A stretch of DNA of 64,000 nt, from contig CAWEPZ010000011.1 in NCBI GenBank assembly GCA_963811105.1, forward strand, positions 544,001 to 608,000, read 5' to 3'. Of this stretch, positions 1 through 19,135 are shown one piece after another. How positions within the stretch are numbered: the first letter of the stretch is position 1; the number at the start of each line of letters is the position of its first letter. A program made the translations under genes and the position numbers. This DNA is from Candidatus Bathyarchaeota archaeon (GTDB taxonomy: Archaea > Thermoproteota > Bathyarchaeia > Bathyarchaeales > Bathycorpusculaceae). The notes beneath the pieces are model-generated. The model searched no databases. It had not been told where the DNA came from and worked only from the letters and a program-made list of their open reading frames with translations.

Positions 1-1
1 T

Positions 2-3186: not shown

Positions 3187-3349
3187 CTCGAATCAACCTT
3201 TGCCTTAACGGCGATGTTTAAAATTCAAACGCGAATAAAAACTTTTTCTACTAGAAAACAGTAAGTGCAAAATGGTCAACTAAAAAGTCATAAACTGAAT
3301 AATTGACCAAGCTGAGAAGAAAATGAATTGGAGTGTTTTGGAATAATTT

Positions 3350-3875
3350 CTAAAGGTTAAGTTTTTGATAGTATTTCTCCAAAAACGCTACTTCGGTGAG
3401 TGGCTTCCTGTCTTCTTAGCCAATTACTTTCTTATCTGGACAGCCGAATCCGACTACAGTCGTGATGCTTAGGTTTGCTCGGTAGAGCGTAGTCTTTTTC
3501 ATCGCCGATGTATCAACATCTATGTATATGCCTGAGGGGGTACGCCAAAGCTCCAAGCGTCAAAAAGCATACTTTGAACGGCTCTTACAGATCTATCATG
3601 TGGAAGAAGTACTTAGGATTAGTCAGGATTATAACTGCAAAATTTGACTTTGCAACCCAATTGGCCTGGTACACTGTCAGATGAAAGTTTTTTTGATATT
3701 TTCTTTATCTTGAACCGATACGAACCGCCAATGCTGAATATTATTGAGGCTTCCGGTTAGGCGGGCGGCCTCAAAAATTTTCTTTTTAATTTCAACTGAA
3801 ACAGATTTTGAACTGAAGGAGCGAGACTCAGTTTTTGTCACAATCAACTTATGGGCATTATTACAAGGTATCCAG
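3350..3875 (-). pseudogene. Nitroreductase-family pseudogene
   Basis: Fragments RSFSSKSVSVEIKKKIFEAARLTGSLNNIQHWRFV..AVQSML..AWSFGV..VVGFGCP..RKPLTEVAF, with frameshifts and stops; 5' end approximate. Confidence 0.75.
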
Positions 3876-3957
3876 ACACACTCTTTTGATGAAGGCTCAA
3901 AACAATTCTGGCTACCACTATTTTGTTTTTGAATTAAATAAATTTAACCGTGATGGC

Positions 3958-4305
3958 TTACCGGTATCTATTTTTGAAAATGCTGATAAACATGTAAACA
4001 ACAGCTACAGCATTTGCTACTGCACTTATTCCATTGAGCAAACGTGCTTCAGGGAAATAAATAACATTGAACGCATTAAAAGAGAAAGCGTAGATAAGTG
4101 AGAAAGTGGCAATTGCAGCGCCAAATTTTTTCATGAGCAGCAAACCAACAGTTGAAATAATCCAAAGTGCGAGTAGGATTGAATTATTGAGATCGGCCGA
4201 ATCGTTGAAAACAGTGACTTCCAGTGCCATAAAAACAGTGTTTATGACCATCCATGCAACAATCGCAAATATTGCTAATGTCTTTTTTGGTTTAGTTTCA
4301 GACAT
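3958..4305 (-). CDS. Small membrane protein, about 4 TM
   Basis: 115-aa ORF with four hydrophobic segments. Confidence 0.7.
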   Translation of the reverse strand: MSETKPKKTLAIFAIVAWMVINTVFMALEVTVFNDSADLNNSILLALWIISTVGLLLMKKFGAAIATFSLIYAFSFNAFNVIYFPEARLLNGISAVANAVAVVYMFISIFKNRYR

Positions 4306-4416
4306 AGCTAATTTTTGTATACTGTTTTAGGATTTAACTTTTTAGTAAAATCTCTTGGAAAATCTTTCGGGATAAAATTAAACAATAAATAAAAGTCTAA
4401 CAAATAGGTATTCCAA

Positions 4417-4923
4417 GTGAATGCTATGCGGTTTGAGTGTTGTGGCTGCAAGAAATCTTTTTCCGGTTCAGGATTAATTGTGAATATAAATAGTAATGAG
4501 CAGATGTATTGTGCGAATTGTTTCTGGAAGGTTCGGGCTGAATACGATAAGAAGAAGACCTGTGAAGACTGTGGCTACTTTGAAAAGGAATCCTGCGAGA
4601 AAACTGGAAAAAATTTGACTCCCGCAAAGGTTGGATTTAACGAGTATTTTGTCGAAGCAGAAACTTGCAAAGACTTCACCATCGAGAAAAAAGGCAGTCC
4701 GAAAAAGAAAGACAAAGAAGTAACTCAGACGCAAAAAGAAGCAGCCGCTCTCGCCAAGAACCTCTCGGAAAAAGGACAAACTCTAACATATTACTGTTGC
4801 CACTGTGGAGCACCTCTAAAAATCGGTGGAAAAACATCAGAAATCCAGAAAACCTGCCCCAGATGCCGCGGTGACCTCGAAATTATCAATCTAGCAAAAT
4901 TAATCAAACAACACCATTCTTAA
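4417..4923 (+). CDS. Multi-zinc-ribbon Cys-rich protein
   Basis: CxxC pairs CCGC, CANC, CEDC, CCHC, CPRC. Confidence 0.75.
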   Translation: MNAMRFECCGCKKSFSGSGLIVNINSNEQMYCANCFWKVRAEYDKKKTCEDCGYFEKESCEKTGKNLTPAKVGFNEYFVEAETCKDFTIEKKGSPKKKDKEVTQTQKEAAALAKNLSEKGQTLTYYCCHCGAPLKIGGKTSEIQKTCPRCRGDLEIINLAKLIKQHHS

Positions 4924-4970
4924 AGCCTCGAAGTTGCAAACGGAATTGGCGATCTCTCTGGGCTTGAAAC

Positions 4971-5888
4971 TTATAGCATTATATCCTTATGATCAATTAA
5001 TTCTTTAGCTGTAATTAGTTTAATGTCAATTCTGTTCATCCGTGCCCTACTAACTGCAGCGTACGCTTCACTGTTGAAGCCAAAAGCAACCATAACGCCA
5101 CTTCGAGTCTTTGCCTGTGTAAGCGCATTCATAAAACCATCAACCTGCAATCTATCCACACTATCCGACTGCTTAATTGCAACCGGAACATTATCACCAG
5201 TGAATCCGTCAATTCCCTTTCTTGAATCTAAGACTGAACCTGCATGACCTCTAATCCTCTGAAACACCCAATCTTGATATTCATAAGAAGAGAAAAGCCG
5301 AACCTTTTGCTCTGAAATCCTCGTCTTCTTAAGCATCATGAATCCACCTATGGAGCCAAGCGCAACCACAACTATACCGACTACAGGAAATGCAACAGAA
5401 CCATAATCAAACCCTTTGCCGGAATTATTGCCGCTTGTATGTCCAGCTCCGCCTGAACTGGGGATAGTAGGTTGGGTTCCAGTTCCTGTGCCGGTTGAAC
5501 CTGTGATAGGCTCTGCAGCGAATGTAATCATGCAAGCATAGTAAGGCTCAAAAGGTAAGTCAAAGCTAAGTGTTATCCACACGGTTTGACCCGGACCTAT
5601 AAGTGTTCTATCTGAAGATTTTGTCTGGGAATCACCTGCTTTAGCGCTAAGAGTAAGAACAGCTGTTGCGACACCATAAACATCGACAGCCTCATTATTT
5701 TTGAATTCTCCAGTCACGTTTGTTGTGTGTGCATCTCCGCCTGCGTTGATTTGGACTCTAGTAACATTTGGCTGAACTGATTCCGCATTTACGAAGCATG
5801 ACTGACTTGCTATTGCAACTACGCTTAAAATTGAAAGAACAAGAAAAAGTATCAACAAACTGTTTACAATCTTACCTTTTTTCGCCAT
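4971..5888 (-). CDS. Membrane-anchored protein with a C-terminal Mrr-like restriction-endonuclease domain
   Basis: Signal peptide, beta-rich extracellular domain, G/T/S linker, TM helix, then YQDWV..KGIDG..PVAIKQSDSVDR..VDGF..GVMVAFGF..IKLITAKELI. Confidence 0.75.
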   Translation of the reverse strand: MAKKGKIVNSLLILFLVLSILSVVAIASQSCFVNAESVQPNVTRVQINAGGDAHTTNVTGEFKNNEAVDVYGVATAVLTLSAKAGDSQTKSSDRTLIGPGQTVWITLSFDLPFEPYYACMITFAAEPITGSTGTGTGTQPTIPSSGGAGHTSGNNSGKGFDYGSVAFPVVGIVVVALGSIGGFMMLKKTRISEQKVRLFSSYEYQDWVFQRIRGHAGSVLDSRKGIDGFTGDNVPVAIKQSDSVDRLQVDGFMNALTQAKTRSGVMVAFGFNSEAYAAVSRARMNRIDIKLITAKELIDHKDIML

Positions 5889-6100
5889 TTCGTCCAACCT
5901 CAAGTTTCAGCGACAACTCTAATGCACCTCTGATGTCATGGTTCGGTATCTATAACCTCAGGGGCTTAGTTAGTCAAACGCTGTCTATGGTACACTTAAT
6001 TATTAAAAACTTTGCATAAACTCAGAAAGATAATTATTTAAGTTAAGCTGAGCGGAAAATCTTTTTTGCTTAATCGCATTAGAACTTTGTAGCGGAATTT

Positions 6101-6586
6101 TTGGTAAACGTGATTGAAAAAACCAGAGGCGTTTTAGTCAGCAAGACCGCTTTTGGTGGTTTGTTTTTTGTTGTTTTCTTGACAACTTGGGATCTGCCAT
6201 TGTTGTGCCTTACTTTTTTTTATGTGCTTACCGTGGGTGGCTCAGCGTTCCTATACGGAGTGCTTCTAGCATCTTACAGCCTCATGTCTTTTGTTTTCAC
6301 ACCTTTTGTTGCCAGGTTGAGCGACCGTTATGGAAGAAGAAAAATCCTACTCGCCGGGTTAGAAATATCCAGCTTAAGCTACTTCATATTCGGCTCAGCG
6401 CACGTTATTTGGCTGCTATTTGCAGGTATAATGCTTTCTGGAACCACACCTGCTAACATCAATGTTGCTCAAGCTTATGTTGCGGATGTCACTACCCAAC
6501 GCAGATTACGTTACCTCGGGGTCTTGGCGCGGCGTTGTTTCAGCTGCAATTTCAGTCGCCCCTGTGCCTTTGGTTTTAAGTTCTAA
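6101..6586 (+). pseudogene. Truncated TetA-like MFS transporter (N-terminal half only)
   Basis: Motif A RLSDRYGRRKIL and VAQAYVADVT; ends just before the att-like site at 6632. Confidence 0.75.
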
Positions 6587-6631
6587 AAAGTTCATAGCAT
6601 TAATTAGCAGAAAAAGGATTGTAGCTTGACG

Positions 6632-6655
6632 TTTACGCATACGCTTAAATTCCAC
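6632..6655. repeat. Degenerate copy of the tRNA-Ser(GCT)-linked att junction
   Basis: tttacgcatacgcttaaattccac matches 14416..14439 tttacacccacgtttaaattccac at 20/24. Confidence 0.6.
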
Positions 6656-6706
6656 CTGAAAAACCCGAGAAACTCAATTCTAATTCGATTTTTGACCAGC
6701 AAGTTT

Positions 6707-6744
6707 ATATGAATACTATTTCATATGAATTATAATTCATATGA
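6707..6744. promoter_or_regulatory. ArsR/SmtB-type operator: two overlapping ATATGAA-N6-TTCATAT boxes
   Basis: Perfect 24-bp palindrome tcatatgaattataattcatatga (6721..6744) plus atatgaatactatttcatat, overlapping the TATA box upstream of the ArsR gene. Confidence 0.75.
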
Positions 6745-6768
6745 TTCGCAATACCAAGATGGAAAGAA

Positions 6769-7089
6769 GTGAAAAAAAGCCTAACAAAAATCTGTTATCG
6801 ATTCTTCATCAACCTAGCAAATCCCACAAGACTCGCAGCACTCGAACAGCTTATGCAGAAACCCATGAGCGTAAACGAACTCGCAACAGCCCTCGGACAA
6901 GAACAAAGCATGATCTCACACAACCTCAAACCATTACTCCAATGTAACCTCATCGCTATCAAAAGGCAAGGCAAAAAACACATTTACACAGTCAACGAAG
7001 AAACTATGCGCCCCATCTTTGGAGCCATCGAAAATCACGCGCAAAAATTCTGCCCAACAGGAGGAAAATGCCTGAAAGGAGAGAATTAA
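6769..7089 (+). CDS. ArsR/SmtB transcriptional regulator
   Basis: LANPTRLAALEQL..MSVNELA..QEQSMISHNLKPL winged HTH. Confidence 0.9.
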   Translation: MKKSLTKICYRFFINLANPTRLAALEQLMQKPMSVNELATALGQEQSMISHNLKPLLQCNLIAIKRQGKKHIYTVNEETMRPIFGAIENHAQKFCPTGGKCLKGEN

Positions 7090-7090
7090 C

Positions 7091-7744
7091 ATGATAAAAA
7101 GAAAAATCGTGAACATAAATGAAAATCTCTGTAATGGATGCGGCAACTGCATCCCTAAATGCGCAGAAGGCGCCCTCCAAATAGTAAACGACAAGGCAAA
7201 AATCATCAAAGAAACCTATTGCGATGGCTTAGGCGCTTGCTTGGGGCAATGCCCTCAAGGAGCAATAACTATAACAGAACGTGAAGCAGAATCCTTCGAC
7301 GAAAACGAAGTGCACGAACATTTCAAGAGAAAACCAAACCCCACGTCGCCAACAGACATTAAAGCTAACTTGACACAACAAAAGCCCCAGTGGCCCGTAA
7401 AACTAAACCTTGTCCCAACCAAGGCTCCATTTTTCGAAAATGCCAACCTACTACTCGCTGCTGACTGCGCACCTATTGCACTCAAAAACTTCCACGACAC
7501 ATTGATGTCTGGAAAGCGAGTCATTATAGGCTGCCCAAAATTCGACGATGCGAAAGCATACGCCCAGAAACTGACCGAGATCCTAAAACAAAACAACATC
7601 GCATCCGTGGCCGTTGTTCATATGGAAGTGCCCTGTTGTACTGGCTTAAAATGGGCTATAAAAAAGGCGCTTGAATTATCAGGTAAACAAATTCCACTTA
7701 GAGAATATGAAATAAAAATAGGAGGCGAAATAGTTGAGCTCTAA
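7091..7744 (+). CDS. 4Fe-4S ferredoxin-domain iron-sulfur protein
   Basis: CNGCGNCIPKCAEGA, CDGLGACLGQCPQGA, QWPVKL, AADC, GCPKFD, MEVPCC. Confidence 0.9.
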   Translation: MIKRKIVNINENLCNGCGNCIPKCAEGALQIVNDKAKIIKETYCDGLGACLGQCPQGAITITEREAESFDENEVHEHFKRKPNPTSPTDIKANLTQQKPQWPVKLNLVPTKAPFFENANLLLAADCAPIALKNFHDTLMSGKRVIIGCPKFDDAKAYAQKLTEILKQNNIASVAVVHMEVPCCTGLKWAIKKALELSGKQIPLREYEIKIGGEIVEL

Positions 7745-7988
7745 AGATAAGCCCATGGAAAAGAATCCTCAAACATGTCCAGGACTACGAGACCTGCTTC
7801 AGCCTAAACCGGCTTATATTAAATGTCATGTTTGCGGCGGCGATCTAGAAATTTGGAGTGATGAAGACAAAACATTATGTCCAGAATGCGGAGCCGAATG
7901 GAAACGCCCCGACAAGACAGCCGCATGCTTAGAATATTGTCAGTACGCCGACAAATGCCGAGGTATAATCGAATCGAAAAAAACCTAA
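7734..7988 (+). CDS. Small Cys-rich metal-binding protein
   Basis: CPG, CHVCG..EIWSDE..CPECG, CLEYCQYADKC. Confidence 0.8.
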   Translation: MSSKDKPMEKNPQTCPGLRDLLQPKPAYIKCHVCGGDLEIWSDEDKTLCPECGAEWKRPDKTAACLEYCQYADKCRGIIESKKT

Positions 7989-7991
7989 AAG

Positions 7992-8486
7992 TTGGAGATG
8001 AATCTTTTGATAAGAGTTTTTGTTATCTATGACACGAAATACGGCAACACAAAACTTGTCGCGGAGACCATTGTCGAGGGAATGAAAGAAATTGAGGACA
8101 TTGAAGCCTCCATTGGCTACATCAAGGAAATTGACATTGGAAAAGTGGCTGATTATGACGCAATAGTGTTAGGCGCGCCAAATCACATGAGTAGACCATC
8201 TCACACTATGAAGAAGTTTGTTAATACGTTGGCTAAGCTTGATCTGAAAGCAAATTTTGCGTCTGTTTTCGGTACTTACTCAGGAAGAATAAGAACTCCA
8301 GACAGAGCGGTGAAAAATCTGGAAAAAACGGTAGAAGAGAAGTTGCCTCACCTAAAACTGATTTCACCAAGTCTATCAATAAGAGTGAATGGAATTCCAG
8401 GTCCTTTGGCAGAAGGAGAACTACCTAAGTGCAAAGACTTCGGCAGAAGAATTGCAAATAACCTGAAGGTTTCTTTGAAAATATAA
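7992..8486 (+). CDS. Flavodoxin-domain protein
   Basis: YDTKYGNTKLVAE FMN loop, YDAIVLGAP, VFGTY. Confidence 0.9.
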   Translation: MEMNLLIRVFVIYDTKYGNTKLVAETIVEGMKEIEDIEASIGYIKEIDIGKVADYDAIVLGAPNHMSRPSHTMKKFVNTLAKLDLKANFASVFGTYSGRIRTPDRAVKNLEKTVEEKLPHLKLISPSLSIRVNGIPGPLAEGELPKCKDFGRRIANNLKVSLKI

Positions 8487-8647
8487 AAACTTGTTTTAGG
8501 TCAACTGGCGAATCGGATTACTTAATGATGGTTGCTCCATCTGGAAGCTTTCCTAATATTGCTATGTACCCTTCAGATTCGTTGACCCAGCAAGACTTTG
8601 TCATTCGGTTTGATCAAAAGTTTTTGTGGTATCGTTCTCGTTGACAT
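8487..8647 (-). pseudogene. N-terminal fragment of a DUF3052-like protein
   Basis: MSTRTIPQKLLIKPNDKVLL(fs)VNESEGYIAILGKLPDGA..PVDL; frameshifted and truncated. Confidence 0.5.
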
Positions 8648-8754
8648 GAAGATCTCAATTGATATTACTTAACTTGGCGAAGTCATAAATGTTAGGACCA
8701 TGCTATTCCTGTTTTAGGTTGCAATTAAGTCGTGATGGATTCATACACTAGACC

Positions 8755-8793
8755 TTAGCGGCAAACCATTATTTCAGACCATAATTTGGGCAT
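8755..8793. repeat. Relic of the cassette end repeat
   Basis: cttagcggcaaaccattatttcagaccataatttgggcat resembles 15358..15398 cttgggcggtaagccataatttcaaataacaatttgagcat. Confidence 0.55.
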
Positions 8794-8871
8794 ACGGCAA
8801 ACGGGCTTACAAAAATTAGTCGATGAAAAGTCATTCAGCATGTTAAATATAAGGATAAACTGTATAGCAGT

Positions 8872-11800
8872 GTGATGTCTTTGGCAAACAAAACGAATGT
8901 TAAGAATGATAAGGGTCAGATTGATTTTGCAGTAGTTGGTATCGGTGCTTCAGCCGGTGGGTTAGAAGCCTTTAGGGTTTTGCTCGAAGGTTTGCCAGTG
9001 GATACAGGTTTGTCTTTTGTTGTTATCCAGCATCTGGCAGCTGGTCAGGAAAGCATGCTGACCGATATTCTTTCAAGATTTACCAAAATTCCTGTCCAAT
9101 TAGTCAAAGATGGGCTGCAAGTTGAACCAGATCATGTTTACGTTATTCCGCCAGGAGCAACTATGACCATTGAAAAGAAGGTTCTCAAGCTTACCACGAA
9201 GGGTAAGTCTATGAAACCTATTGACACTTTTTTTGTTTCCTTAGCTGAAGACTTGAAAAGCCAAAGCATAGGAATCGTACTTTCAGGCACAGGCTCTGAC
9301 GGAACTGAAGGCCTAAAAGCAATCAAAGCACATGGAGGAATAACTTTCGCGCAAACTCCGGATTCAGCACAGTATGGTGACATGCCCCAAAATGCAATCT
9401 CAGCAGAAGCCACAGATTTTGTTCTCTCTCCAGACAAGATTGCAATAGAACTACAAAAAATCGCTAAGAACCCTCACCTATCACGAAGTGAAATAGCAGC
9501 AAAAGACGAAACAAGACCAAAGGAAGAAAAATCAAAGAAAGAAACAGGCCTAAACGCAATATTTACCATGCTAAAATCCTACTGCAATGTTGATTTTTCA
9601 CACTACAAAGAAACGGTCGTAAACCGACGTGTCACACGCCGAATGGTAATTAACCACATAGAGAAAATGGACCATTACACAAAGTTCCTGTCGGCGCATC
9701 CCAATGAGTTGGAAGCATTACATGGTGACATGCTAATAGGAGTAACAAGTTTCTTTAGAGAAACTGAAACATTTGTTGCACTCAAAGAAACAGTGTTTCC
9801 CTGTTTAGTGAAAAACCGCCAACAAAAAGAGCCTATCCGAGTTTGGATTCCAGCCTGCTCAACTGGAGAAGAAGCATATTCATTCGCCATTGCAATCCAG
9901 GAATACCTTGAAGAAAACGCCGTGACTGATTTTCAAGTTCAAATTTTCGGCACTGATGTAAACGAAAAAAACATTGAAAAAGCAAGACAAGGAATCTACC
10001 CAACAACAATAGAAACAAACGTCAATGAAAAACGACTAAAACATTTCTTCAAAAGCTCTAACGGCAACTATCAAATCTCCAAAACCATTCGAGATAAGTG
10101 CATATTTGCAAAGCAGGACATAACGGCTGACCCGCCATTTTCAAATATGGATCTTATCATTTGCCGCAACATGCTCATCTACTTTGATGAATACCTCCAA
10201 GAAAAAGTAGTGCCTACGCTACATTATGCCTTAAAAATGGGTGGTTTTCTTGTCATAGGACAATCTGAAAGCATTGGGAAATTCACTCAGTTATTTGAAC
10301 ATGTAAACAAAGGGGGCGCTATCTACATGAAAAAGAGAGCTCAGCCCAGTGCTACTTTTGGTCTGCAAGCATCAACTCCCAATTTGAAGCGCAATGAAGG
10401 CAAAGAAAGCAATAAGAAAGACGCCCTTTCGATTCTGAAAGATGAGGTCGACCGTTTGCTGGTCACTGAGTATGTCCCTGCAGCATTACTGGTTAATTCC
10501 GATTTAGATGTTCTTATTTTTCGAGGAAATATTGCACCATATGTTTTACCTGAATCAGGATTGGCAAGTTTGAATCTGGCAAAGATTATTCGCAAAGAGT
10601 TACGGTCTGAAGTACAAACAATAATCTACAGAGCAAGAAAAGAGGACAAACTTGTCAAAGAAAATGCTGTTCGGTTTGAATATGCTGGAGAAGAGAAAAC
10701 AATCAACGTCCAGGTTCTGCCGATGCATGTTGAACAATATGAGGCGCCATTTTTCCTTCTATTGTTCGAAGATGTCAGCTCAGCCGCAGCGCTCTTGCGC
10801 CAAAGGATGGAGTTAAATATCACTCCTGAAGGTCGGGAAAATCTTAAGGACCGACAAAATAGAGAACTCGGGGAGGAACTTGACTCAACTAAACAAACTT
10901 TGCAGCGAATTATTGAAACTCAAGAGGCAACAAATGAGGAACTGAGAACCACCATGGAGGAAGCGCAATCGAGCAATGAGGAACTGCAAAGCACAAACGA
11001 AGAGTTGGAAACAGCAAAGGAAGAACTTCAGTCGAGCAACGAAGAGTTAAAGACGTTAAATGATGAAGTAAAGAACAGAAATCAAGCACTTGCCCAGTTG
11101 AACGATGACTTAGCCAATTTGAACAGGAACGTAGATACAGCCATCGTTATAATCGATAAGAGTCTAAAAATTAGGCTGTTTTCGCCTTCAGCTCAGAAAA
11201 TCCTGAATCTTTCGCCATCGACAATTGGACTACCAATAACGAGTATCAAATTGAGCGTGGTAGTTGAGGATTTGAGAGAAACAATTTCGGAAGTTATTTC
11301 TAAACTAAGCGGCGTTACGAAAGAAGTGCAGGATACTCAAGGCCATTATTTTGATTTGCTAATTCGGCCTTACATAACGCAAGATGATAGGATAGATGGT
11401 GCGGTCTTAGCCTTTGTCGATATTGATGACAGGAAAAAACTTGAAAAGGCTCTACATCTAGCAGCTATAGGCGAGACTGCTGGCATGGTTGGCCATGATA
11501 TACGTAATCCATTACAGGCCATTACCGGTGACATCTACTTGGCTAAAACTGAGTTGGCTTCAACACCCGAGAGCGATGAAAAAAGGAATGCGCTAGAAAG
11601 TCTGACTGAGATTGAGAAGAACATTGATTACATTAACAAGATTGTGGCTGACCTTCAAGACTACGCGAAGACAATGGATCCTACTGCTCAAGAAACAAAC
11701 TTGGAAAATCTATGCAAGGAGTTATTGTTCGGGAAGAAGATACCTAAGAATATCAAAGTTTCGTGCAACGTCGAGAAGACTGCTAAAACAATCATGGTTG

Positions 11801-12138
11801 ACAATTCTTTATTGAAGCGCATTCTTGGCAATCTGGTTACTAATGCAGTTCAAGCTATGCCTAACGGCGGAGAACTAACCATAAGAGCGCGCCAAGAAGC
11901 AGGCGACAATGTCATTACAGTTCAAGATACGGGCATCGGCATACCTGACAAAGTCAAGCCAAAACTTTTCACTCCATTCTTCACGACTAAGTCGAAAGGT
12001 CAAGGATTAGGATTAGCGGTGGTCAAGCGTATGACTGAAGCGTTAAGCGGAACGGTAACATTTGAAAGCGTAGAAGGGAATGGGACAACTTTTATTGTAC
12101 GTTTTCCACCTCAAAAAGGTAAATGGACATTCAAATAA
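8872..12138 (+). CDS. CheB/CheR/PAS/histidine-kinase fusion protein
   Basis: CheB GASAGG..QH..GSDGTEG; CheR RVWIPACSTGEEAYS, CRNMLIYF; coiled coil NEELQSTNEELET; HisKA GHDIRNPL; HATPase NLVTNA..DTGIGI..GQGLGL. Confidence 0.93.
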   Translation: MMSLANKTNVKNDKGQIDFAVVGIGASAGGLEAFRVLLEGLPVDTGLSFVVIQHLAAGQESMLTDILSRFTKIPVQLVKDGLQVEPDHVYVIPPGATMTIEKKVLKLTTKGKSMKPIDTFFVSLAEDLKSQSIGIVLSGTGSDGTEGLKAIKAHGGITFAQTPDSAQYGDMPQNAISAEATDFVLSPDKIAIELQKIAKNPHLSRSEIAAKDETRPKEEKSKKETGLNAIFTMLKSYCNVDFSHYKETVVNRRVTRRMVINHIEKMDHYTKFLSAHPNELEALHGDMLIGVTSFFRETETFVALKETVFPCLVKNRQQKEPIRVWIPACSTGEEAYSFAIAIQEYLEENAVTDFQVQIFGTDVNEKNIEKARQGIYPTTIETNVNEKRLKHFFKSSNGNYQISKTIRDKCIFAKQDITADPPFSNMDLIICRNMLIYFDEYLQEKVVPTLHYALKMGGFLVIGQSESIGKFTQLFEHVNKGGAIYMKKRAQPSATFGLQASTPNLKRNEGKESNKKDALSILKDEVDRLLVTEYVPAALLVNSDLDVLIFRGNIAPYVLPESGLASLNLAKIIRKELRSEVQTIIYRARKEDKLVKENAVRFEYAGEEKTINVQVLPMHVEQYEAPFFLLLFEDVSSAAALLRQRMELNITPEGRENLKDRQNRELGEELDSTKQTLQRIIETQEATNEELRTTMEEAQSSNEELQSTNEELETAKEELQSSNEELKTLNDEVKNRNQALAQLNDDLANLNRNVDTAIVIIDKSLKIRLFSPSAQKILNLSPSTIGLPITSIKLSVVVEDLRETISEVISKLSGVTKEVQDTQGHYFDLLIRPYITQDDRIDGAVLAFVDIDDRKKLEKALHLAAIGETAGMVGHDIRNPLQAITGDIYLAKTELASTPESDEKRNALESLTEIEKNIDYINKIVADLQDYAKTMDPTAQETNLENLCKELLFGKKIPKNIKVSCNVEKTAKTIMVDNSLLKRILGNLVTNAVQAMPNGGELTIRARQEAGDNVITVQDTGIGIPDKVKPKLFTPFFTTKSKGQGLGLAVVKRMTEALSGTVTFESVEGNGTTFIVRFPPQKGKWTFK

Positions 12139-12204
12139 AGACTTTTTTTTCTTTTTGAGCAGAGAATAGAGTTTCAAAATGCAGTTCAACAAATTCGCTT
12201 CTTT

Positions 12205-12554
12205 ACCTTTTCTGTTTTAAGGCTTCTTTGTCGATTTTCTCTAGAACACGATTTGAAAGGGCGATGCATGCTGGGTGTTTGCGTGCCTAAAGCCCGAGCC
12301 CCTACCGGACTCAGCCACAAATCGGCACTTGAGACCTTAAGTCCATTTCGTTTAGAACCCTTAAGATGCCGTTTCATCTTAATTTTATTGCTCAACTAGT
12401 TCGCATGTAATTTAAACACAATATATTAGGCGGTAAGCCATAATTTCGGGGAATAATATGGGCATATTTATTAAAATAAGTGCAATAATAGACTGAATTT
12501 GGAAATGGCACGGGATGTCAGATTTAAGTTCACGTTTAAATTTCACCCGAGAAA
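12205..12554. repeat. Cassette junction: element end, degenerate tRNA-Ser(GCT) 3' copy (12506..12534) and right arm
   Basis: Homologous to 15175..15468, with identical ggcggtaagccataatttc and ctgaatttggaaatggc; 22/29 match to the tRNA 3' end, then tttaaatttcacccgagaaa. Confidence 0.9.
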
Positions 12555-12673
12555 GCCTATGAATAACGGAACAAAACAAGGGAGCTTATTCAATTAGAAG
12601 GGCGTTTGAAAACTCCGCTAAGACGCGTGTCAGATTACTAACTTTGGAGATGTATGTAGCCCGATCTCTGCAA

Positions 12674-13978
12674 TTAGCAATGTGTTTGTTTGGTCTGAAA
12701 TGGTGTAGAGGTAGATGTAAATGTTGAAACAAGCCACGCTGAAACCGCCAAGCAAGACGCGGCTGCTATGAACGTTGTATAGAATCCGAGATAAAACGAG
12801 AAGAATCCCGAAACCAAGGATCCAACCATCGTAGCGACAGCAACCAGGGCACTATAGACTCCCAGAGAAGAACCCTGATTTGTCTGTCCGAGCGCGTTAA
12901 ATACCATGGTGTTCGATGAAGTGAAATATATCGAATAGGCAACTCCGGCGGCAAGAGGATAAAGAATTAGCACAGGAGCGAGGAACCATACTCCGGCTAT
13001 AAGATATACGGAAACACCCAACAGCCCGTAGCAAGTTGATCTTAAGATAAGACTTGTGACGGTTGCCTTAGCAGGCGATTTCTTCTCGGAGTAGGGACCC
13101 GCGTACTTAAACGAAACCATCTGAACTACCATGCCGATTGTCGTGGCTAAAAAAATTAGCAGGTTTGAAGCATGTTTTGCATGCAAAGAGGGAACGATTG
13201 AAGTGTTGAAGATTCCCGAACCCAGATAGAACGCAAAGATGGAGAGATAGAGAAGCGGCACATGTTTGGTAAGTTCACATTTTAAGGATGTGAACACTCT
13301 CCTGAAATCGTTTAGCCTTGGAATCTTTAAGAAGAGATAAGGTATGACTTTAAGTCGATGAAAGAAGCTGGATCTGGTCAAAGTTATCATTTTGCGCTCA
13401 AAAATAACTTTTGGCTCTCTTATCATTAGAACAGAAAGACCAGCAGAAATCAGCGATAGAATTGCTAAAGCCACTACGATGTAGGTTAACGGAAAAAACA
13501 GAGTCCAAACCAAGCAGGTAATCAGCCCAATAGCGTTGCCGATGCTCGAAATCATGGATAGTCTTGCAAAAGCGGTTGCCCACTTTTGTTTACGCTCCGT
13601 CTCCATTATGAGAAGATTCAAAGGCGTTGTAGACGCAGTCGTTGCAAAAGAGAATAAGGCATATAATAAAGAGATAGAGTAAAATGTTCTTGCCACCAAA
13701 AATAATCCGAAAACTCCTGCCGTTGCCAAGTAACTTATAATAATAATCGGTCTTCTTTTGTGTTCTCGATCAACAGCAAAACCCCAAAATATTGCAGCAG
13801 GAATGCTGACCATATTATATAGCGTAATCGCGAGGCCCACTTCAATAACTGTTCCATGCATGTTTAATATAAGAAGCTGAATAATGGTCGGAACAGGTCC
13901 CAAGGCAATGCTGATTGGCAATACCGAATTTATCCAAGCGACACGATTTGTCCTCTTTGCGACAACCAGATTGTTCAT
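12674..13978 (-). CDS. MFS transporter
   Basis: 434 aa, about 12 TM, WGFAVDREHKRRP motif-A variant. Confidence 0.9.
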   Translation of the reverse strand: MNNLVVAKRTNRVAWINSVLPISIALGPVPTIIQLLILNMHGTVIEVGLAITLYNMVSIPAAIFWGFAVDREHKRRPIIIISYLATAGVFGLFLVARTFYSISLLYALFSFATTASTTPLNLLIMETERKQKWATAFARLSMISSIGNAIGLITCLVWTLFFPLTYIVVALAILSLISAGLSVLMIREPKVIFERKMITLTRSSFFHRLKVIPYLFLKIPRLNDFRRVFTSLKCELTKHVPLLYLSIFAFYLGSGIFNTSIVPSLHAKHASNLLIFLATTIGMVVQMVSFKYAGPYSEKKSPAKATVTSLILRSTCYGLLGVSVYLIAGVWFLAPVLILYPLAAGVAYSIYFTSSNTMVFNALGQTNQGSSLGVYSALVAVATMVGSLVSGFFSFYLGFYTTFIAAASCLAVSAWLVSTFTSTSTPFQTKQTHC

Positions 13979-14294
13979 GGCACGAGAATCAACCTCAGGG
14001 GTTCCGGTTGGTTCTTGGAAAGTTAAACCTCCTTTTTGAGTTCAAAATGTGTCTCTTCTTTTCCGGCGGCAGTCAATCAGCTCTCCTTTTTAACGACTAT
14101 CGTATGGCATATTTTAAAATTAACTGAACTCCGAATGACGTTTAACATAGAAGATGAGCGCCGCAATCTTTTCAAGACCCAAAGCCCCACAAGTTGAGTT
14201 AAAATCTTACTAAAACTAATTACATTCATGACCTTAATCAATACGAACCTCCACCGACTCCGCTCTCACCGGAATAAATCTTTCACACGCTCAC

Positions 14295-14447
14295 AAGTAG
14301 TTTGAATACTAGACTTTATGTGGAGACCTGTAATTTCTGACAGCAATTTGAGCAGAATGTTTTAAAACAGCTTCAATAAAAACTTAAAATGGAAATAATG
14401 GCGCGGGATGTTAGATTTACACCCACGTTTAAATTCCACGCGAGAAA
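14295..14447. repeat. Cassette junction: element end, tRNA-Ser(GCT) 3' copy (14399..14427) and right arm
   Basis: tggcgcgggatgttagatttacacccacg matches the tRNA 3' end at 25/29, followed by tttaaattccacgcgagaaa; the upstream part matches 217..260. Confidence 0.9.
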
Positions 14448-14634
14448 TGTTTGAAATTATGAACAAGTCAATGCTTTTTTCAAGCCCAAAAGAGTGCGAG
14501 TCCCCGAGCTAAAGTTGACTGATTAAGGCGTTTTTTACAAACTCTGACATGGGTTTGAGCTGCCGTCCTAGAAAAACTGATTAACAGTATCTTCAAAAAA
14601 CTCTAAAACACAACGCTTCTTGGAAGGAAAATGT

Positions 14635-15003
14635 TCAAGGTTTTTCGTATTTAGATTCTTCAATTCTCTTCTTTTCCAGTTCTTCGGTTGTTAATTGTTG
14701 TTCTTTTTGCCGTTCTTGTTGTTTCTCTTTTGGCGGCCAAGTGATCGGGTCCTTCACATAAGTTTTCATGAGACTTATTTTGCCGCAGGCCGGACATTTC
14801 AATTGTTTGAGTGGTCCTATATGAAAGCCAGATAAACTATGTGAAGCGTCAAAGACATTGCCGCATTTTGAGCATTTAGCTCGCATGGAGCCGGGAGTTC
14901 TCATCATGTAAAGACGAACAGCCACAGCCACAACAACTACTATTATTACTACAATGATTCCCACGTACGGTCCGCCGATTGATACACCGATTAATTGTCC
15001 CAT
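14635..15003 (-). CDS. Single-TM zinc-ribbon protein
   Basis: N-terminal TM helix, CSKCG..CPACG, charged tail. Confidence 0.75.
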   Translation of the reverse strand: MGQLIGVSIGGPYVGIIVVIIVVVVAVAVRLYMMRTPGSMRAKCSKCGNVFDASHSLSGFHIGPLKQLKCPACGKISLMKTYVKDPITWPPKEKQQERQKEQQLTTEELEKKRIEESKYEKP

Positions 15004-15174
15004 TCAAATACGCCATTTCTCTATTTTGAGAATTTATGTTTCGATAAATACATTTGCTTCAGAAACAAGTATTTTAGCTTCTCAGATCGGACTATAGGCA
15101 AATTTGGTTTCTCAATTTTGCTGATCAAAAAATAGTGTTTCAAAGATAAGCTCGACCTATTTACCTGATAACTT

Positions 15175-15439
15175 TTTCTCTTGGAGGCTTCTTTTCCATT
15201 TTGCAGTTTGAAGTGGGCTTAATTCTGAATGAGGTTTGGTCTCTCTACCGGGTTCAGCCCCAAATCGGCTTAAGCCGTAGTACATTTCGCTGAGAACCTA
15301 AACATCATTCCATTCTAATTTGGAAAAACTAATTGGCGTGGAATTTAAGCACTATACCTTGGGCGGTAAGCCATAATTTCAAATAACAATTTGAGCATAA
15401 TTATTGAAAATAGGTTCATAAATAGGCTGAATTTGGAAA
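15175..15439. repeat. Element end adjoining the tRNA-Ser(GCT) 3' end
   Basis: Homologous to 12205..12505; contains gcgtggaatttaagc (15336..15350), the inverse of the att right arm. Confidence 0.85.
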
Positions 15440-15526
15440 TGGCGCGGGATGTGGGATTTGAACCCACGCGGCCTTTCGACCACAGACTTAGCAGGCCTGC
15501 CCCCTACCAGGCTAGGGCAATCCCGC
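15440..15526 (-). tRNA. tRNA-Ser(GCT), no intron, encoded CCA
   Basis: Reverse complement GCGGGATTGCCCTAGCCTGGTAGGGGG-CAGGC-CT-GCT-AA-GTCTG-long variable arm-GTGGGTTCAAATCCCAC-ATCCCGC-G-CCA. Confidence 0.97.
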
Positions 15527-15913
15527 AATGGTGTCCCTGTCTACTTTATTCCTTTGACAAGCAGCTTTTCTTATTTGCCATGTGGTCAACTTATGCTGCG
15601 TTCAGTAGAAGAGTGATGATTGGCTATTTTTGTCTTTTGTTATGATTTTATCTCTGTGGGAACACTGGGAAATGCTACTCTAATAGAACGAGATATTGTA
15701 AAAAAAAGAGAAACAGCGGTATAAATACGAATTAGCCAGTGGAGGGTCCGCTGGGACTCGCCTAATTATTTAAGCGAATCCTTATTTTCTAAACTACAAG
15801 ACAATGGTGAGTCTATATTTGCCAGGTTGAGGATTTGAACCCTATGGCAAGTGGAGAAATCTCCCGCACATCCTTTTTTCTTTCCTAAAAATGGTTGGTT
15901 AGATTAAACTACG

Positions 15914-16612
15914 CTAACTACTGCCTACTAACTCTAGCTTTTCTAGCCATATCTCAAACCCTACCTCTTCATCGATAATTTTACACCCTTTAAATTTGGA
16001 TTTTTTGATGATGTCTTGGATTTCGGTTCGAGTGTAAGCCGATTTCGCTAACCCTTTGAAAGTTTGCTTGGTAAAGTATGAGTCGAACAAGTTCAATTTC
16101 ATGCGATCAACAAATTCGTTCAGTTTGTCTTCGGGAACATCCTTATTCATATCGATAATCAGCGCCTTACCGCTTGCCTTTAAAACCCTAAATATTTCGT
16201 CTAAGACCTTAATTGGGTCTGGAAAGTTTTTGAAAGCAGAAGTACAGACTGCAAAATTAAATGTTCCATCCAGAAAAGGCATTTCAGCAGCATCACCCTG
16301 ACGGAAATCGACCTTTACTCTTGCTTCCGTAGCTTTGTTTTGCGCGATTTCCACAAAGGTTTTGCTTATGTCTAATCCAGTTATGTTATAGTTACCAAGC
16401 TTTGCAAGTTCAACCGACAAGTATCCTGGACCTGGAGCTACTTCAAGCACATTACTGCTCGGTGAAGTGTTGTCGCTCACAAGTTTAGCCCATGATTTGT
16501 ATTCTCCAATCATGTGCTTTTGAATCCTGTTATACTGTTTGGCTATAACGCCCTCCATTGCTATGCCCTTGTAGGCTTTTCTTTTTTTAGACGAAGGAGA
16601 ATTTGTTTTCAT
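15914..16612 (-). CDS. Class I SAM-dependent methyltransferase
   Basis: VLEVAPGPGYL, GLDIS, GDAAEMPF, EIFRVLK; start placed at MKTNS. Confidence 0.9.
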   Translation of the reverse strand: MKTNSPSSKKRKAYKGIAMEGVIAKQYNRIQKHMIGEYKSWAKLVSDNTSPSSNVLEVAPGPGYLSVELAKLGNYNITGLDISKTFVEIAQNKATEARVKVDFRQGDAAEMPFLDGTFNFAVCTSAFKNFPDPIKVLDEIFRVLKASGKALIIDMNKDVPEDKLNEFVDRMKLNLFDSYFTKQTFKGLAKSAYTRTEIQDIIKKSKFKGCKIIDEEVGFEIWLEKLELVGSS

Positions 16613-16613
16613 G

Positions 16614-17015
16614 CTATTTCTCACTCTTTGTCTGCTGTAATTCAAGCGTCGCTTCGTAGTTCTTCAATGAAACAAGAGCACCGAGAACTATGTATAGGGC
16701 AGTGACGCCTACTGGCAGTCCACCACCCACCTCAAGACTCGGTTGAGTGCTCACTGCTACCCGAAGAATGACACCTAATGCTCCCAAAATTGAAGCTCCT
16801 GCGTAACTCCAAACCTTTTTTCTTCGACAATTGTAGATAAAAACTATACTCAGGATAGTAATTGGAGTAATGAAGGCTACTGATAGAAGTCTCATTTCAG
16901 TTGTGCCCGTTGCGAAAGTAGCTAAGAAGGCAAGAATGATTGCTACAAGAAATAACTCTAGTAAACCAACTGCAGTTTTCATGTTGATGCTTAGCGATTC
17001 ATTAACAATCTTCAA
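16614..17015 (-). CDS. Small membrane protein, about 4 TM
   Basis: Hydrophobic 133-aa ORF abutting the methyltransferase. Confidence 0.7.
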   Translation of the reverse strand: MKIVNESLSINMKTAVGLLELFLVAIILAFLATFATGTTEMRLLSVAFITPITILSIVFIYNCRRKKVWSYAGASILGALGVILRVAVSTQPSLEVGGGLPVGVTALYIVLGALVSLKNYEATLELQQTKSEK

Positions 17016-17216
17016 AGTTATTCACCGCCTGCATCAACTAGTTGTTGAATACATACTCATTAAAGTTCAGTATAACTGATATTCAAAAAAACCTGAAGTG
17101 GAACTTCAACCCCTGATAATTTGGACAGGACATGAGTTTTGAACCCCTTCATTCTGCCTTGAGTCTGAATAGTATGACTATTTGAACCTGCGACAGAGTA
17201 GAGTAAAGCGCCATAG

Positions 17217-17342
17217 TGGGGAACCGAACCCTAAACATCCATATTAGTAATTGTACTGGGGATGGGCTCTTAAGTTGAGGGCCGATTCCATTCCCCGTTT
17301 AGGCTTCAAGGAAGTGGTTTGCATACATATTACCGATCCTCC
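17217..17342. repeat. Dispersed ~125-bp structured repeat, copy B
   Basis: Roughly three-quarters identical by eye to 125..250. Confidence 0.85.
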
Positions 17343-17389
17343 AGTTGCCAAACGAGCTTATAAAATTGAGGGGCAGCACACACGTTTAA

Positions 17390-17821
17390 TCATTTCATTC
17401 TTTCCCATATCAAGTATCCGCTTTGTTGTTTACCGCCAAGAATCATGGGCGGTGTGCTTAGTACCAGTTTATCTCCTTCAAACTTGAAGAACCGTACCTG
17501 ATCTTTTCCTATCCAATTCGGATAGAAGCTAACCTCTACGTGATGTATGACCCTAACTTCAGCGACCTCGTACTTGCCACAATAAGAGATGTAGGAACCA
17601 TATGCGGCAACTATTTCTTCTGTAGTGCCGCCCATTATATCCATTGACGAAAAACTCCTTCTATTCGAAGCCATTAATGCTACTGCCATGTATCCCCCAT
17701 CGTTATACATGATATAGCCGACGGGATTTTTTCCCAAAGGGTAGGTCACTTGGTCTCCTGACCGATTTTCGTAGGACACGAGCTTCCAAGTTCCTATGAA
17801 TCTTTCAGACATAAATTCCAC
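17390..17821 (-). CDS. Lipocalin-like (Lipocalin_5) protein
   Basis: FIGTWKLVSYE..PVGYIMY..GYMAV..SYCGKY..PNWIG..LIWER. Confidence 0.85.
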   Translation of the reverse strand: MEFMSERFIGTWKLVSYENRSGDQVTYPLGKNPVGYIMYNDGGYMAVALMASNRRSFSSMDIMGGTTEEIVAAYGSYISYCGKYEVAEVRVIHHVEVSFYPNWIGKDQVRFFKFEGDKLVLSTPPMILGGKQQSGYLIWERMK

Positions 17822-17871
17822 TTTGGCTAGAATAAGCCTTTTCTATGTAAAAATCTTTTGTTGATAGCGCG

Positions 17872-18971: not shown

Positions 18972-19135
18972 CGCGCGACTGTTTGGCGCTTGTCTTGCTC
19001 AAGATCGATTTGTATCCTCATCGAGTCAGAAGACACGTGATGATTTGTTTTTTTTTAATCAATCCTAATATCTGGATCGAGCCGTGCTTGAACCCAAACA
19101 TTAGCTCAATTTACTCGTTTTATAGGGGCGCGCGC

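Follow-up and report, generated by a model that had tools for sequence, protein, structure and literature searches.

We examined a 64-kb stretch of DNA (the window) from a soil or peat Bathyarchaeota archaeon. An array in it extends from a truncated MFS flank gene to a tRNA-Ser(GCT) gene and has three or four units: one of 1041 bp, one of 1893 bp, and a stretch of ~5.9 kb that probably holds two. In each unit a ~50-nt site, made up of a tRNA-like part and a "B arm," comes first, and a conserved "A module" comes last. The features are as follows, with strand given for genes:

6101..6586, plus strand: conserved flank gene (MFS), 161 aa, truncated right at the relic site
6613..8829: probable cassette 3a, relic site and four-gene operon
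6613-6663: cassette 3a relic site, B arm retained, tRNA-like part degenerate (site HMM, E 0.007 genome-wide)
6769-7089, 7091-7744, 7734-7988, and 7992-8486, all plus strand: cassette 3a operon (ArsR, 4Fe-4S protein, zinc ribbon, and flavodoxin, respectively)
8745..8795: relic of a type-a A module (local score 43; shuffles 18.3 +/- 2.3, maximum 26)
8830..12505: probable cassette 3b, one gene and the A3 module; the left boundary is approximate because its own site has been lost
8872-12138, plus strand: CheB-CheR-PAS-histidine kinase gene of cassette 3b
12205..12505: A3 module, type a, with an inverted B-arm motif at 12402-12417
12506..14398: cassette 2, 1893 bp, site (12506-12554), MFS gene, and A2 module
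12674-13978, minus strand: MFS transporter gene of cassette 2
14284-14398: A2 module of cassette 2, weak
14399..15439: cassette 1, 1041 bp, site, one gene, and A1 module
14399-14427 and 14428-14447: core-like part and B arm, respectively, of the cassette 1 site
14635-15003, minus strand: cassette 1 gene, 122 aa, a TM segment and weak zinc-ribbon matches
15175..15439: A1 module, type a, forming the end of cassette 1 next to the tRNA (76% identity to 12302-12525)
15440..15526, minus strand: intact tRNA-Ser(GCT) gene, the docking site (Rfam tRNA, 54.9 bits)

The A-module relic at 8745..8795 marks where cassette 3a formerly ended. The flank MFS gene is full length in relatives (about 403-417 aa) and borders the variable region there. 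Within positions 1-20000, the only Rfam matches at an E value of ≤1 were two tRNAs and one sub-threshold snoRNA match. A partial tRNA match at 381-414 was considered as a further att copy and rejected; it belongs to an intron-bearing tRNA-Ser(GGA) gene.

A 51-nt direct-repeat family, far above chance, has members at 6613, 12504, 14397, and 15438. Their spacings of 5891, 1893, and 1041 bp reproduce the unit sizes given in a first-pass annotation of this DNA. Across the 51 nt, the copies at 14397 and 12504 match with 84% identity (blastn, E 1e-9). The same annotation had reported that the 3' 29 nt of the tRNA recur at 14399 and 12506, that each copy is followed by a right arm not derived from the tRNA, and that a relic copy lies near 6632. 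The two matches were recovered (25/29 and 22/29, respectively), the non-tRNA right arm starts at 14428, 12535, and 6644, and the relic is the repeat at 6613-6663.

The A module beside the tRNA (15175-15439, described earlier as a repeat of ~300 bp) is found again at 12205-12505 (76% over 225 nt, E 2e-34), as a weak repeat at 14284-14398 (61-75%), and as the relic previously placed at ~8755. The B arm contains a 16-nt motif in the forward orientation, and A1 carries the same motif inverted at 15335-15350, at a distance of 105 nt from the core on its left side; A modules often have this inverted motif. Across genomes, A modules are 80-300 nt long, those of unrelated cassettes are 75-95% alike, and their ends form conserved types (34 of 65 cluster). 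The inverted motif lies 99-128 nt from the core in 15/65 A-ends, compared with 0/65 and 1/65 in reversed controls. The distal ~95 nt of A3 (12190-12285) is part of a noncoding repeat that occurs 6 more times in the genome. We rejected the idea that the A module is an integrase remnant or a small gene, since the repeat copies show no coding conservation, the window units gave no integrase match by tblastn, and the Rfam search above brought up no family there.

Identity between the tRNA and the cassette sites is confined to the last 13 nt of the tRNA (15440-15452, plus strand). Because no other stretch is identical in both, we infer that crossover occurs in these 13 nt, the core. The rest of the site, the B arm, is an element-specific, conserved T-arm-like stretch of ~37 nt that is kept across species. 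It includes a TTTAAA box. The 44 site instances, from many species, yield a single consensus in which the element-specific part is conserved as well as the tRNA-like part. We take the site to be a conserved element sequence and not a decayed tRNA copy. The first-pass annotation had described an inverted repeat around an 8-bp spacer, which we did not confirm. The tRNA's own left arm is complementary to the right arm at 9/11 positions, yet the two never adjoin; the left arm in the actual copies is the element version, only about 7 of 11 positions of which are complementary. A second, tandem half-site resembling a T arm is the better reading of the right arm. Single-stranded folding of the site was no better than that of shuffled sequences (z, -1.27 to +0.48 for both strands of two sites and a 150-nt span), and we rejected an attC-like hairpin on this test. 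A mini-ORF running through the site, with its ATG at the core, was also rejected, as the variation has no third-position pattern.

We compared the end modules and the locus with those of related genomes, as the first-pass annotation had advised. Of the 101 genomes of the genus, 40 contain a 24-nt B-arm pattern when as many as 3 mismatches are allowed; the reversed control gave 0 matches. The exact pattern was found in 43 genome contig stretches, 39 of them labelled Bathyarchaeota or Bathyarchaeia, in 92 metagenome contigs, and in no viral contig of IMG/VR. We concluded that B-arm sites are almost confined to Bathyarchaeia MAGs. Intervals from one site to the next (n = 36) range from 748 to 6310 bp, with a median of ~1.9 kb, and 30 are <3 kb, with full sites. 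All sites point the same way in 35/35 multi-site loci (pattern scans L047-L181), many of which are from the same genomes as the G-numbered set. Cargo genes lie on both strands, although the sites are co-oriented, and include transporters, redox proteins, toxin-antitoxin pairs, sensor kinases, a protease with its inhibitor, and small proteins with no known function. The distance from the MFS gene to the tRNA ranges from ~1.5 kb (G014) to ~14.6 kb (G010), with unrelated cargo. The tRNA-Ser locus is hypervariable among relatives.

Individual cassettes recur in different surroundings. Between G001 and G111, an ADH cassette that is present in only 3/101 genomes shows 94.6% identity across the 2035 bp from one site to the next. 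Its neighbors there are unrelated, and the sole other stretch that the two loci have in common is the core flank, which is 85% identical. A DUF2807 cassette is internal in one genome (G019:C26) and tRNA proximal in another (G062; 90.9%). A tRNA-proximal cassette is common to G019, G106, and G003, and the second cassette differs. The MFS cargo of cassette 2 is present at 81-86% identity in 6 other genomes of the genus and at ~65% in 2 more. A stretch encoding a CheBR kinase, 68% identical to the cassette 3b gene, lies in a tRNA-Leu array (G104). Cassette 1 and the ~1-kb tRNA-proximal cassette of G012 have only their two ends in common. At the two left boundaries examined, the homology of shared cassettes begins within 2 to 6 nt of the core's left edge. 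As weak evidence, contigs from other samples that match the MFS cassette continue into unlike sequence at 14439 and 14451, immediately past the site. These comparisons indicate that the cassettes are discrete and probably mobile between contexts.

Neither Pfam searches of 15 ORFs nor tblastn with related integrases detected an integrase in the units of the window, and the nearest PF00589 match in a genome-wide search lies ~13 kb left of the window and is full of stops. The units thus lack a recognizable integrase, as had been noted at first pass. Cas1 and transposases were not found in the units either (Pfam, window and array ORFs). A PF00589 scan of 10 genomes gave no match within 5 kb of motif arrays and first suggested a total absence of integrases; this was overturned by tblastn, which found a rare clade of XerA-like tyrosine integrases. 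In the 101 genomes, the clade is represented by 2 intact genes and 1 pseudogene, in contrast to the 40 genomes with sites. Its members (PF00589-positive proteins of 295-305 aa in G117, G016, and L137 and the pseudogene in G002) each lie within 0-25 nt of a tRNA-type core, and most arrays have no integrase adjoining the docking site. Two Pfam screens, which covered 126 and 150 array ORFs, overlooked the frameshifted G002 integrase, later found by tblastn, so other degraded integrases may have escaped them too.

The first-pass annotation had advised looking elsewhere for integrases with the same ends. The rare clade abuts the same tRNA end, and the integrase-bearing elements of G002 and G016 have at their distal end a B-arm site whose core type matches; these two elements suggest that integrase and B arm are linked. 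The integrase of G117 and L137 stands in place of the B arm, next to a tRNA-type core of 24-25 nt in which its open frame starts, and may therefore belong to a separate element type merely sharing the target. In the host genome, however, no intact close relative of the candidate integrase was found: the best intact match is 37% identical, and closer matches (49-58%) are fragments or pseudogenes. The genome is littered with integrase fragments. Since the host has no cognate integrase, the array is probably static now. Two viral contigs encode 42-43% identical integrases, one of them beside a tRNA-Ser(GCT) gene, and neither contig has a site. We rejected a viral origin of the sites on these grounds together with the lack of exact matches in IMG/VR.

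We looked for excised forms. Terminal repeats expected of a circular form were present in 0/92 metagenome contigs. There were no informative excision or deletion joints in 4 sequencing runs, the contigs of which were short, 90-99% alike, from related populations, and left 14448-15215 uncovered; the best run contained only 0.21 of the sampled words, and neither the gap nor the lack of joints weighs for or against mobility.

On balance, we lean toward the explanation that the arrays consist of nonautonomous, att-bearing cassettes that accumulated by site-specific recombination and were mobilized in trans. The first-pass proposal that small cassettes, bounded by att sites and free of integrase genes, have been stacked at one tRNA agrees with the hypervariable locus, the many copies of the end modules, and the presence of the same cassette elsewhere. 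Each cassette has a composite attachment region, no recombinase, and in most cases between one and a few cargo genes. The attachment region consists of an A module (often with the inverted 16-nt motif ~105 nt from the core), the 13-nt core, and the B arm. A circular cassette would recombine with the tRNA end, presumably inside the shared 13 nt or at their left edge, thereby restoring the tRNA beside the A module and leaving an element-type core and B arm at the distal junction. Repeated insertion would stack the units as co-oriented direct repeats, and later deletions would erode the older ones; the truncated MFS gene and the relics of a site and of an A module would be products of this erosion. 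A XerA-like tyrosine integrase of ~300 aa, which rare autonomous elements would supply in trans, is the most likely enzyme. Several observations count against this scheme. No circular form was seen, the host genome has no intact close relative of the candidate integrase, and the clade is rare beside the number of genomes with sites. The MFS cargo has no site within ~4 kb in four genomes. In G009, the same cargo sits between a site and tRNA-Leu(GAG), with a Ser-type core at one end, tRNA-Leu at the other, and an A-end-like stretch adjoining the tRNA; these mixed ends are a poor fit to simple core-matched recombination.

Bathyarchaeia are abundant and uncultured. To our knowledge, no plasmids or genetic tools have been established for them, so that little is known of how they acquire accessory genes. 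Our data suggest that these archaea collect and exchange genes by a route that is little known. The conserved, easily recognized 50-nt site flags small exchangeable cassettes in ~40% of the sampled genomes of the genus and offers a testable route of gene flux; the site and integrase form a simple pair that could become a genetic tool. A broader proposal, which seems to us possible but which we hold only tentatively, is that this soil and peat genus of Bathyarchaeia has evolved a gene-capture platform of its own, independent of integrons. Hundreds of integrase-less, mostly single-gene cassettes, each with a complete attachment region in which a 13-nt core lies between inverted 16-nt motifs at fixed distances, would be inserted, excised, and moved among tRNA-Ser, tRNA-Leu, and tRNA-Arg genes by small XerA-like integrases that rare autonomous elements provide in trans. 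The arrays would then be a shared, exchangeable pool of accessory genes.

Integrase-bearing islands in relatives, named at first pass as grounds for doubt, were found in part: units with an integrase occur within the same arrays in G117 (~7-9 kb), G002 (3.1 kb, integrase frameshifted), and G016 (~10.7 kb). They make an origin by deletion plausible. The units might all be deletion remnants of larger, self-integrating elements that never moved without their own integrase, with sharing due to transfer before decay or to transfer of composite islands. We consider this a live rival, if an unlikely one. The integrase fragments throughout the host genome and the erosion visible in the window are in keeping with it, and the available text of a review of archaeal tyrosine recombinases mentions both tandem integration and integrase loss after integration (PMC8371274). 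However, both complete ends are kept far more regularly than random deletion predicts, given full sites and mostly short intervals. The conserved A-module families have no counterpart at the tRNA-proximal end of the integrase-bearing elements, and identical integrase-less cassettes occur in differing contexts, one of them more conserved than its core flank.

Shuffling by homologous recombination after DNA uptake, with the 50-nt sites and 80-300-nt A modules as homology arms and site-specific recombination reserved for the first insertions, would account for the likeness of A modules between unrelated cassettes, for the joining of a Ser-type core to tRNA-Leu in G009, and for the constant first and variable second cassette of G019, G106, and G003. 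We nevertheless regard it as improbable. Homologous recombination works poorly on 50-nt arms with ~85% identity, the homology of shared cassettes starts within 2-6 nt of the core's left edge at two boundaries, and the B arm is conserved well beyond the need of a homology arm, with its motif repeated inverted at a fixed distance. The exchange of modules between tandem elements through homologous recombination is, on the other hand, described in the accessible part of the same review (PMC8371274). A true integron, with an IntI integrase, attI, and attC-bounded cassettes, deserves almost no credence and is already contradicted. The co-oriented array of single-gene cassettes, the toxin-antitoxin pairs and small unknown proteins among the cargo, and a heptamer at the point where tRNA and site diverge, which we take to be GTTRRRY-like, are reminiscent of one. 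Against this, there is no integrase beside the docking site in the window or in most arrays, the site lacks a hairpin, the cargo genes have both orientations, and the docking site is a tRNA gene. Thus, the description "integron-like" from the first-pass annotation stands as an analogy only; the cassettes would more closely resemble CIMEs or MITE-like derivatives.

Integrons have been reported in Archaea, according to the portion of that report available (10.1101/2022.02.06.479319), and, as far as such partial accounts go, they look like our arrays in function, with small cassettes, mostly of a single gene, captured one after another at the same docking site; they differ in having IntI, attC hairpins, and cassettes that face one way behind a single promoter, and the cassette ends here span 130-350 nt. 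CIMEs are described, in the part of the source available, as att-flanked units without integration genes that derive by decay from ICEs and IMEs in bacteria and are moved by a conjugative partner (PMC5704250). The units here likewise keep both att sites and lack integration and transfer genes. From the same partial source, CIMEs of Streptococcus ICEs and IMEs are also found in tandem at the 3' end of a target gene, with further integration into a retained att site. The differences are the archaeal host, the lack of a transfer apparatus in view, and units that are numerous, mostly single gene, and provided with conserved end modules of their own. As to descent by decay, B-arm sites border the integrase units of G002 and G016, and the cassette A modules have no counterpart there.

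Krupovic et al. (2019; PMC6563490) reportedly provide a further account of archaeal elements integrated at tRNA genes. For elements with class I and II tyrosine recombinases, tandem integration and loss of the integrase are described in the available sections of PMC8371274. As with those elements, integration at the tRNA 3' end yields direct repeats of partial tRNA: the units in the window are flanked by such repeats, with an intact tRNA at one end. The units have no integrase of their own; the known elements, in contrast, are proviruses, plasmids, and cryptic elements of at least several kilobases with an integrase or its remnant. Our search of literature outside subscription journals turned up no account of integrase-less cassettes of ~1-3 kb that occur throughout a genus and bear a conserved arm not derived from the tRNA. 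The tycheposons of Prochlorococcus, as presented in the accessible text of one preprint (bioRxiv 10.1101/2020.12.28.424599), use tyrosine recombinases that target tRNA genes, and older elements are pushed inward, leaving partial tRNAs and fragments. They resemble our arrays, to the extent of that text, in being cargo-bearing elements integrated successively at tRNA genes; they differ in being bacterial, 10-20 kb long, and equipped with an integrase and often replication genes, and their fragments have no clear boundaries, unlike the sharp, conserved ones here. Our findings would extend the idea of nonautonomous integrative elements (CIMEs, integron cassettes, and tycheposon islands) to archaea.

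Casposons and transposons differ from the cassettes, which have no Cas1 or transposase and carry inverted 16-nt motifs 16 nt and ~105 nt inside the ends rather than at them. SSV-type "suicidal" integrases, the genes of which are split in two by integration (PMC7253208, as far as its available text goes), are also archaeal and tRNA targeting, and their att core coincides with the start of the integrase gene or lies inside it, as in L137 and G117. The integrase ORFs found here (295-305 aa, PF00589), however, are whole in the integrated state.

The first-pass annotation had proposed that integrase-less cassettes accumulate at tRNA-Ser(GCT), and the feature proved real: the array consists of non-autonomous integrative cassettes at a tRNA gene, archaeal and genus-wide, marked by a composite site that is distinctive and conserved. 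The window belongs to contig CAWEPZ010000011.1 (C11) of a 3.49-Mb archaeal genome with 41% G+C and intron-bearing tRNAs. Members of a 51-nt direct-repeat family lie at 6613, 12504, 14397, and 15438, spaced by 5891, 1893, and 1041 bp. The features of the array in the window are as follows.

15440-15526, minus strand: tRNA-Ser(GCT)
15175-15439: A1, the conserved cassette end (A module) left of the tRNA
15335-15350 and 12402-12417: inverted copies of the B-arm motif
12205-12505: A3, a repeat of A1, left of the site copy at 12506
8745-8795: relic of the A1 module
6101-6586: truncated MFS gene, a conserved flank gene that is full length in relatives

As first described, the last 29 nt of the tRNA recur at 14399 (25 of 29 positions) and 12506 (22 of 29), and each copy runs directly into the same non-tRNA stretch, the B arm; the two full site copies share 84% identity across 51 nt (E, 1e-9). 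The repetition of A1 as A3 was confirmed (76% over 225 nt; E, 2e-34), as was the relic, which scored 43 against 18.3 ± 2.3 for shuffled sequences, and A1 sequence recurs weakly left of the 14399 copy. The unit genes likewise agreed with the earlier reading (a transmembrane/zinc-ribbon protein, an MFS transporter, a CheB-CheR-PAS-kinase fusion, and an ArsR/4Fe-4S/zinc-ribbon/flavodoxin operon), and no recombinase was found in the window units. The inverted repeat around an 8-bp spacer did not hold up: the left half in the real copies is the element version, complementary at only ~7 of 11 positions. Sites folded no better than shuffled sequences. Outside the array, an IS element transposase (DDE_Tnp_1 plus DUF772; 18005-18955, plus strand) lies 2.5 kb past the tRNA. 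An intron-bearing tRNA-Ser(GGA) (381-493, minus strand), missed by default ARAGORN and found by Rfam and intron-aware ARAGORN, lies 15 kb from tRNA-Ser(GCT); the same pairing occurs in one relative (G016).

To define the site, we assembled 46 examples found in related genomes, 44 of which went into a profile. Identity to the tRNA 3′ end is limited to the first 13 nt. In the 44-instance profile, the following ~37 nt, which include a 16-nt motif with TTTAAA at its center, carry fixed differences from the tRNA and are conserved across species as well as the tRNA-like part. Because this part differs in a fixed way and is equally conserved, the copies are not tRNA fragments in decay; the site is a conserved sequence of the element. 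Crossover inside the shared 13 nt, or at their left edge, would be the only position that fits all junctions while leaving the tRNA intact on one side. Variants with another first part occur at tRNA-Leu(GAG) in two genomes (G104 and G009), and a variant matching a tRNA that ends in CCCGCCCGCCA occurs in G016 and as an orphan at C3:121200-121248 (minus strand) in the own genome. The first part of this orphan matches the 3′ end of an intron-bearing tRNA at C11:530150-530281 (minus strand), called Gly(ccc) by ARAGORN, with an anticodon loop closer to CCT; next to that tRNA is a degraded integrase interrupted by 5 stops. At tRNA-Leu(GAG), arrays that share the B arm mix Leu-type and Ser-type first parts (L029, G104:C1, 625-15668; L187, G009:C299, 3648-5506), and a weak site (E, 0.014) in the own genome is 2.4 kb away from tRNA-Leu(GAG), in region C11:1423456-1425952.

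A 24-nt B-arm pattern (≤3 mismatches) was present in 40 of 101 sampled genus genomes, counting the own genome; the reversed control gave 0 matches. In a collection of 185,579 species, an exact 24-nt pattern hit 43 stretches, 39 of them with Bathyarchaeota or Bathyarchaeia in the title, one "uncultured archaeon," and three under other labels (two on contigs of <7 kb). It also occurred in 92 metagenome contigs and in no viral contigs. The sites form arrays: among the loci retrieved, 36 intervals (site to site or site to tRNA) spanned 748 to 6310 bp (median, ~1.9 kb), 30 of them below 3 kb. All sites were co-oriented in 35 of 35 multi-site loci (two pattern scans, L047 to L181, several repeating genomes already counted). 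The G010 locus has one inverted site.

Comparison of the locus across relatives, which the first-pass annotation had advised, showed variation in both length and content. The distance from the flank MFS gene to tRNA-Ser(GCT) ranged from ~1.5 kb (G014) to ~14.6 kb (G010), and each genome had unrelated content (ABC transporters, Fic, PIN, ADH, helicase, CorA, DapB, PPK2, kinases, and many unknowns). Further arrays carried ArsB, metallophosphoesterase, flavodoxin, DUF4331, DUF2807, ParE/RHH, HicA, PIN, and a papain-like protease with a chagasin-type inhibitor, with cargo genes on both strands. One cassette holds the latter pair:

L043 (G095:C134), 2424-3611: papain-family protease and chagasin-type inhibitor

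An ADH cassette found in only 3 of 101 genomes is 94.6% identical between G001 and G111 over 2035 bp, from site to next site; the only other alignable stretch is the core flank past the tRNA (85%), and the adjacent cassettes are unrelated. A DUF2807 cassette occupies an internal position on G019:C26 and is the tRNA-proximal unit in G062; the two copies are 90.9% identical, and the loci share nothing else. Three genomes (G019, G106, and G003) have a tRNA-proximal ABC cassette and the flank past the tRNA in common, with a different second cassette in each. Homology between the 1041-bp window cassette and the tRNA-proximal cassette of ~1 kb in G012 is confined to their ends (89 nt and 84 nt), and their cargo is unrelated. 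We concluded that the cassettes are discrete units that have moved. The motif CGCGCGCG presumably joins cassettes in another Bathyarchaeia genome.

Six other genomes carry the MFS cargo of the window at 81 to 86% identity. In G009, it has a site on one side and tRNA-Leu(GAG) on the other; in four others, no site was found within ~4 kb. These siteless copies (L184, L185, L186, and L188, from G115, G046, G106, and G098, respectively) form a sharply bounded ~1.46-kb module in otherwise unrelated contexts, with G+C-rich CGCG-type stretches at some borders.

The 320 nt left of each core fell into few conserved types, 34 of 65 being linked by matches of at least 60 nt. An inverted copy of the 16-nt B-arm motif lay 99 to 128 nt from the core in 15 of 65 A-ends (controls: reversed motif, 0/65 and 1/65; forward motif, 3/65). 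The same motif thus stands in opposite orientations ~16 nt inside one cassette end and ~105 nt inside the other, and in a circular cassette both copies would flank the core; the pair may be putative protein-binding sites. The distal part of A3 belongs to a ~95-nt non-coding repeat family (7 copies, 75 to 79% identity) that matches no Rfam family and lacks a conserved reading frame:

Window, 12190-12285
Own genome, C11:153577, C11:654333, C11:1463185, C15:14894, C8:87749, and C2:542888

A Pfam search for PF00589 found no integrase in or beside arrays (126 ORFs of 11 loci at E ≤ 1e-4; 150 ORFs of further loci at E ≤ 1e-3) and none within 5 kb of motif arrays in 10 genomes. A tblastn search with own-genome integrases revised this picture, identifying rare integrases in arrays. 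In G117, an intact integrase of 295 aa lies in the interval bounded by a B-arm site and tRNA-Ser(GCT); this protein, the one that was compared with solved structures, is nearest to archaeal XerA (4a8e and 5hxy). On a metagenome contig (L137), a site and an integrase of 70% identity are 600 nt apart, a frameshifted copy (59 to 60%) missed by the Pfam screen abuts tRNA-Ser(GCT) in G002, and an intact copy (62%) abuts another tRNA in G016. The three intact proteins (G117, L137, and G016) pass the Pfam cutoff. Copies of at least 59% identity occurred in only three of 101 genomes (G117, G002, and G016), all other matches being ≤53%; the own genome has nothing beyond fragments at 49 to 58% and intact paralogues of at most 37%. 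In G002 and G016, the integrase begins immediately past the sense end of the tRNA and is read in the direction away from the tRNA, and the unit is closed distally by a B-arm site with a matching first part. In G117 and L137, the integrase sits in the B arm's place, after a 24- to 25-nt tRNA-type core that is itself preceded by the A-end of an older B-arm cassette. Because of the geometry in G002 and G016, two cases and so a thin basis, the G117/G016 clade is likely the cognate enzyme. Many integrases of 380 to 480 aa in the lineage are arranged differently, upstream of and co-oriented with a tRNA (integrase 3′ end, then tRNA):

L190 (IMG/VR contig), 367-1351
Own genome, C14:13625-14400
Own genome, C6:38015-38838

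Anatomy and comparative data fit a history in which att-bearing units would have integrated serially and site specifically at the tRNA end and then eroded. Since most units have no integrase but retain both conserved ends, and identical integrase-less units occur in different contexts, we somewhat favor mobilization in trans. Pure decay of integrase-bearing elements ranks second and seems rather unlikely, and shuffling by homologous recombination, ranked third, is improbable. Even with mobilization in trans, the simple model is incomplete, because G009 joins a Ser-type core to tRNA-Leu and cargo copies without sites exist. Sequencing reads gave one hint of movement. The best public run contained 0.21 of the sampled words of 12000-16000; four runs yielded short contigs of related populations with no joints at sites. 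Directly past the site, at 14439 and 14451, contigs matching the MFS cassette diverge and continue as different sequence. Terminal repeats were absent from all 92 metagenome contigs.

The closest known concept is the CIME of streptococcal ICE/IME families, which retains att sites, has lost integration genes, and accretes in tandem (PMC5704250). Tandem integration and integrase loss are already described in archaea (PMC8371274). Prochlorococcus tycheposon islands stack at tRNAs as here, whereas they comprise integrase-bearing 10- to 20-kb elements and ill-bounded debris (10.1101/2020.12.28.424599). The cargo mix here (ParE/RHH, HicA, PIN, and protease/inhibitor) resembles that of integron cassettes. 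The array had been called integron-like; three defining features of integrons were tested and none was found, and integrons, including those reported in archaea, are a functional analogy. No paper on these Bathyarchaeia cassettes was found in the main texts of the openly accessible full-text literature.

Another type of att scar was also seen at this tRNA: partial tRNA-Ser copies of 46 to 57 nt, 91 to 100% identical to the tRNA and lacking the B arm.

L013 (G019), 13541-13597
L014 (G003), 9693-9748
L017 (G015), 16412-16466
G013:C44, 3346-3391

These scars suggest a further element family, one with a longer core, at this docking site. A Fic-family gene lies next to the scar in G019 and G003.
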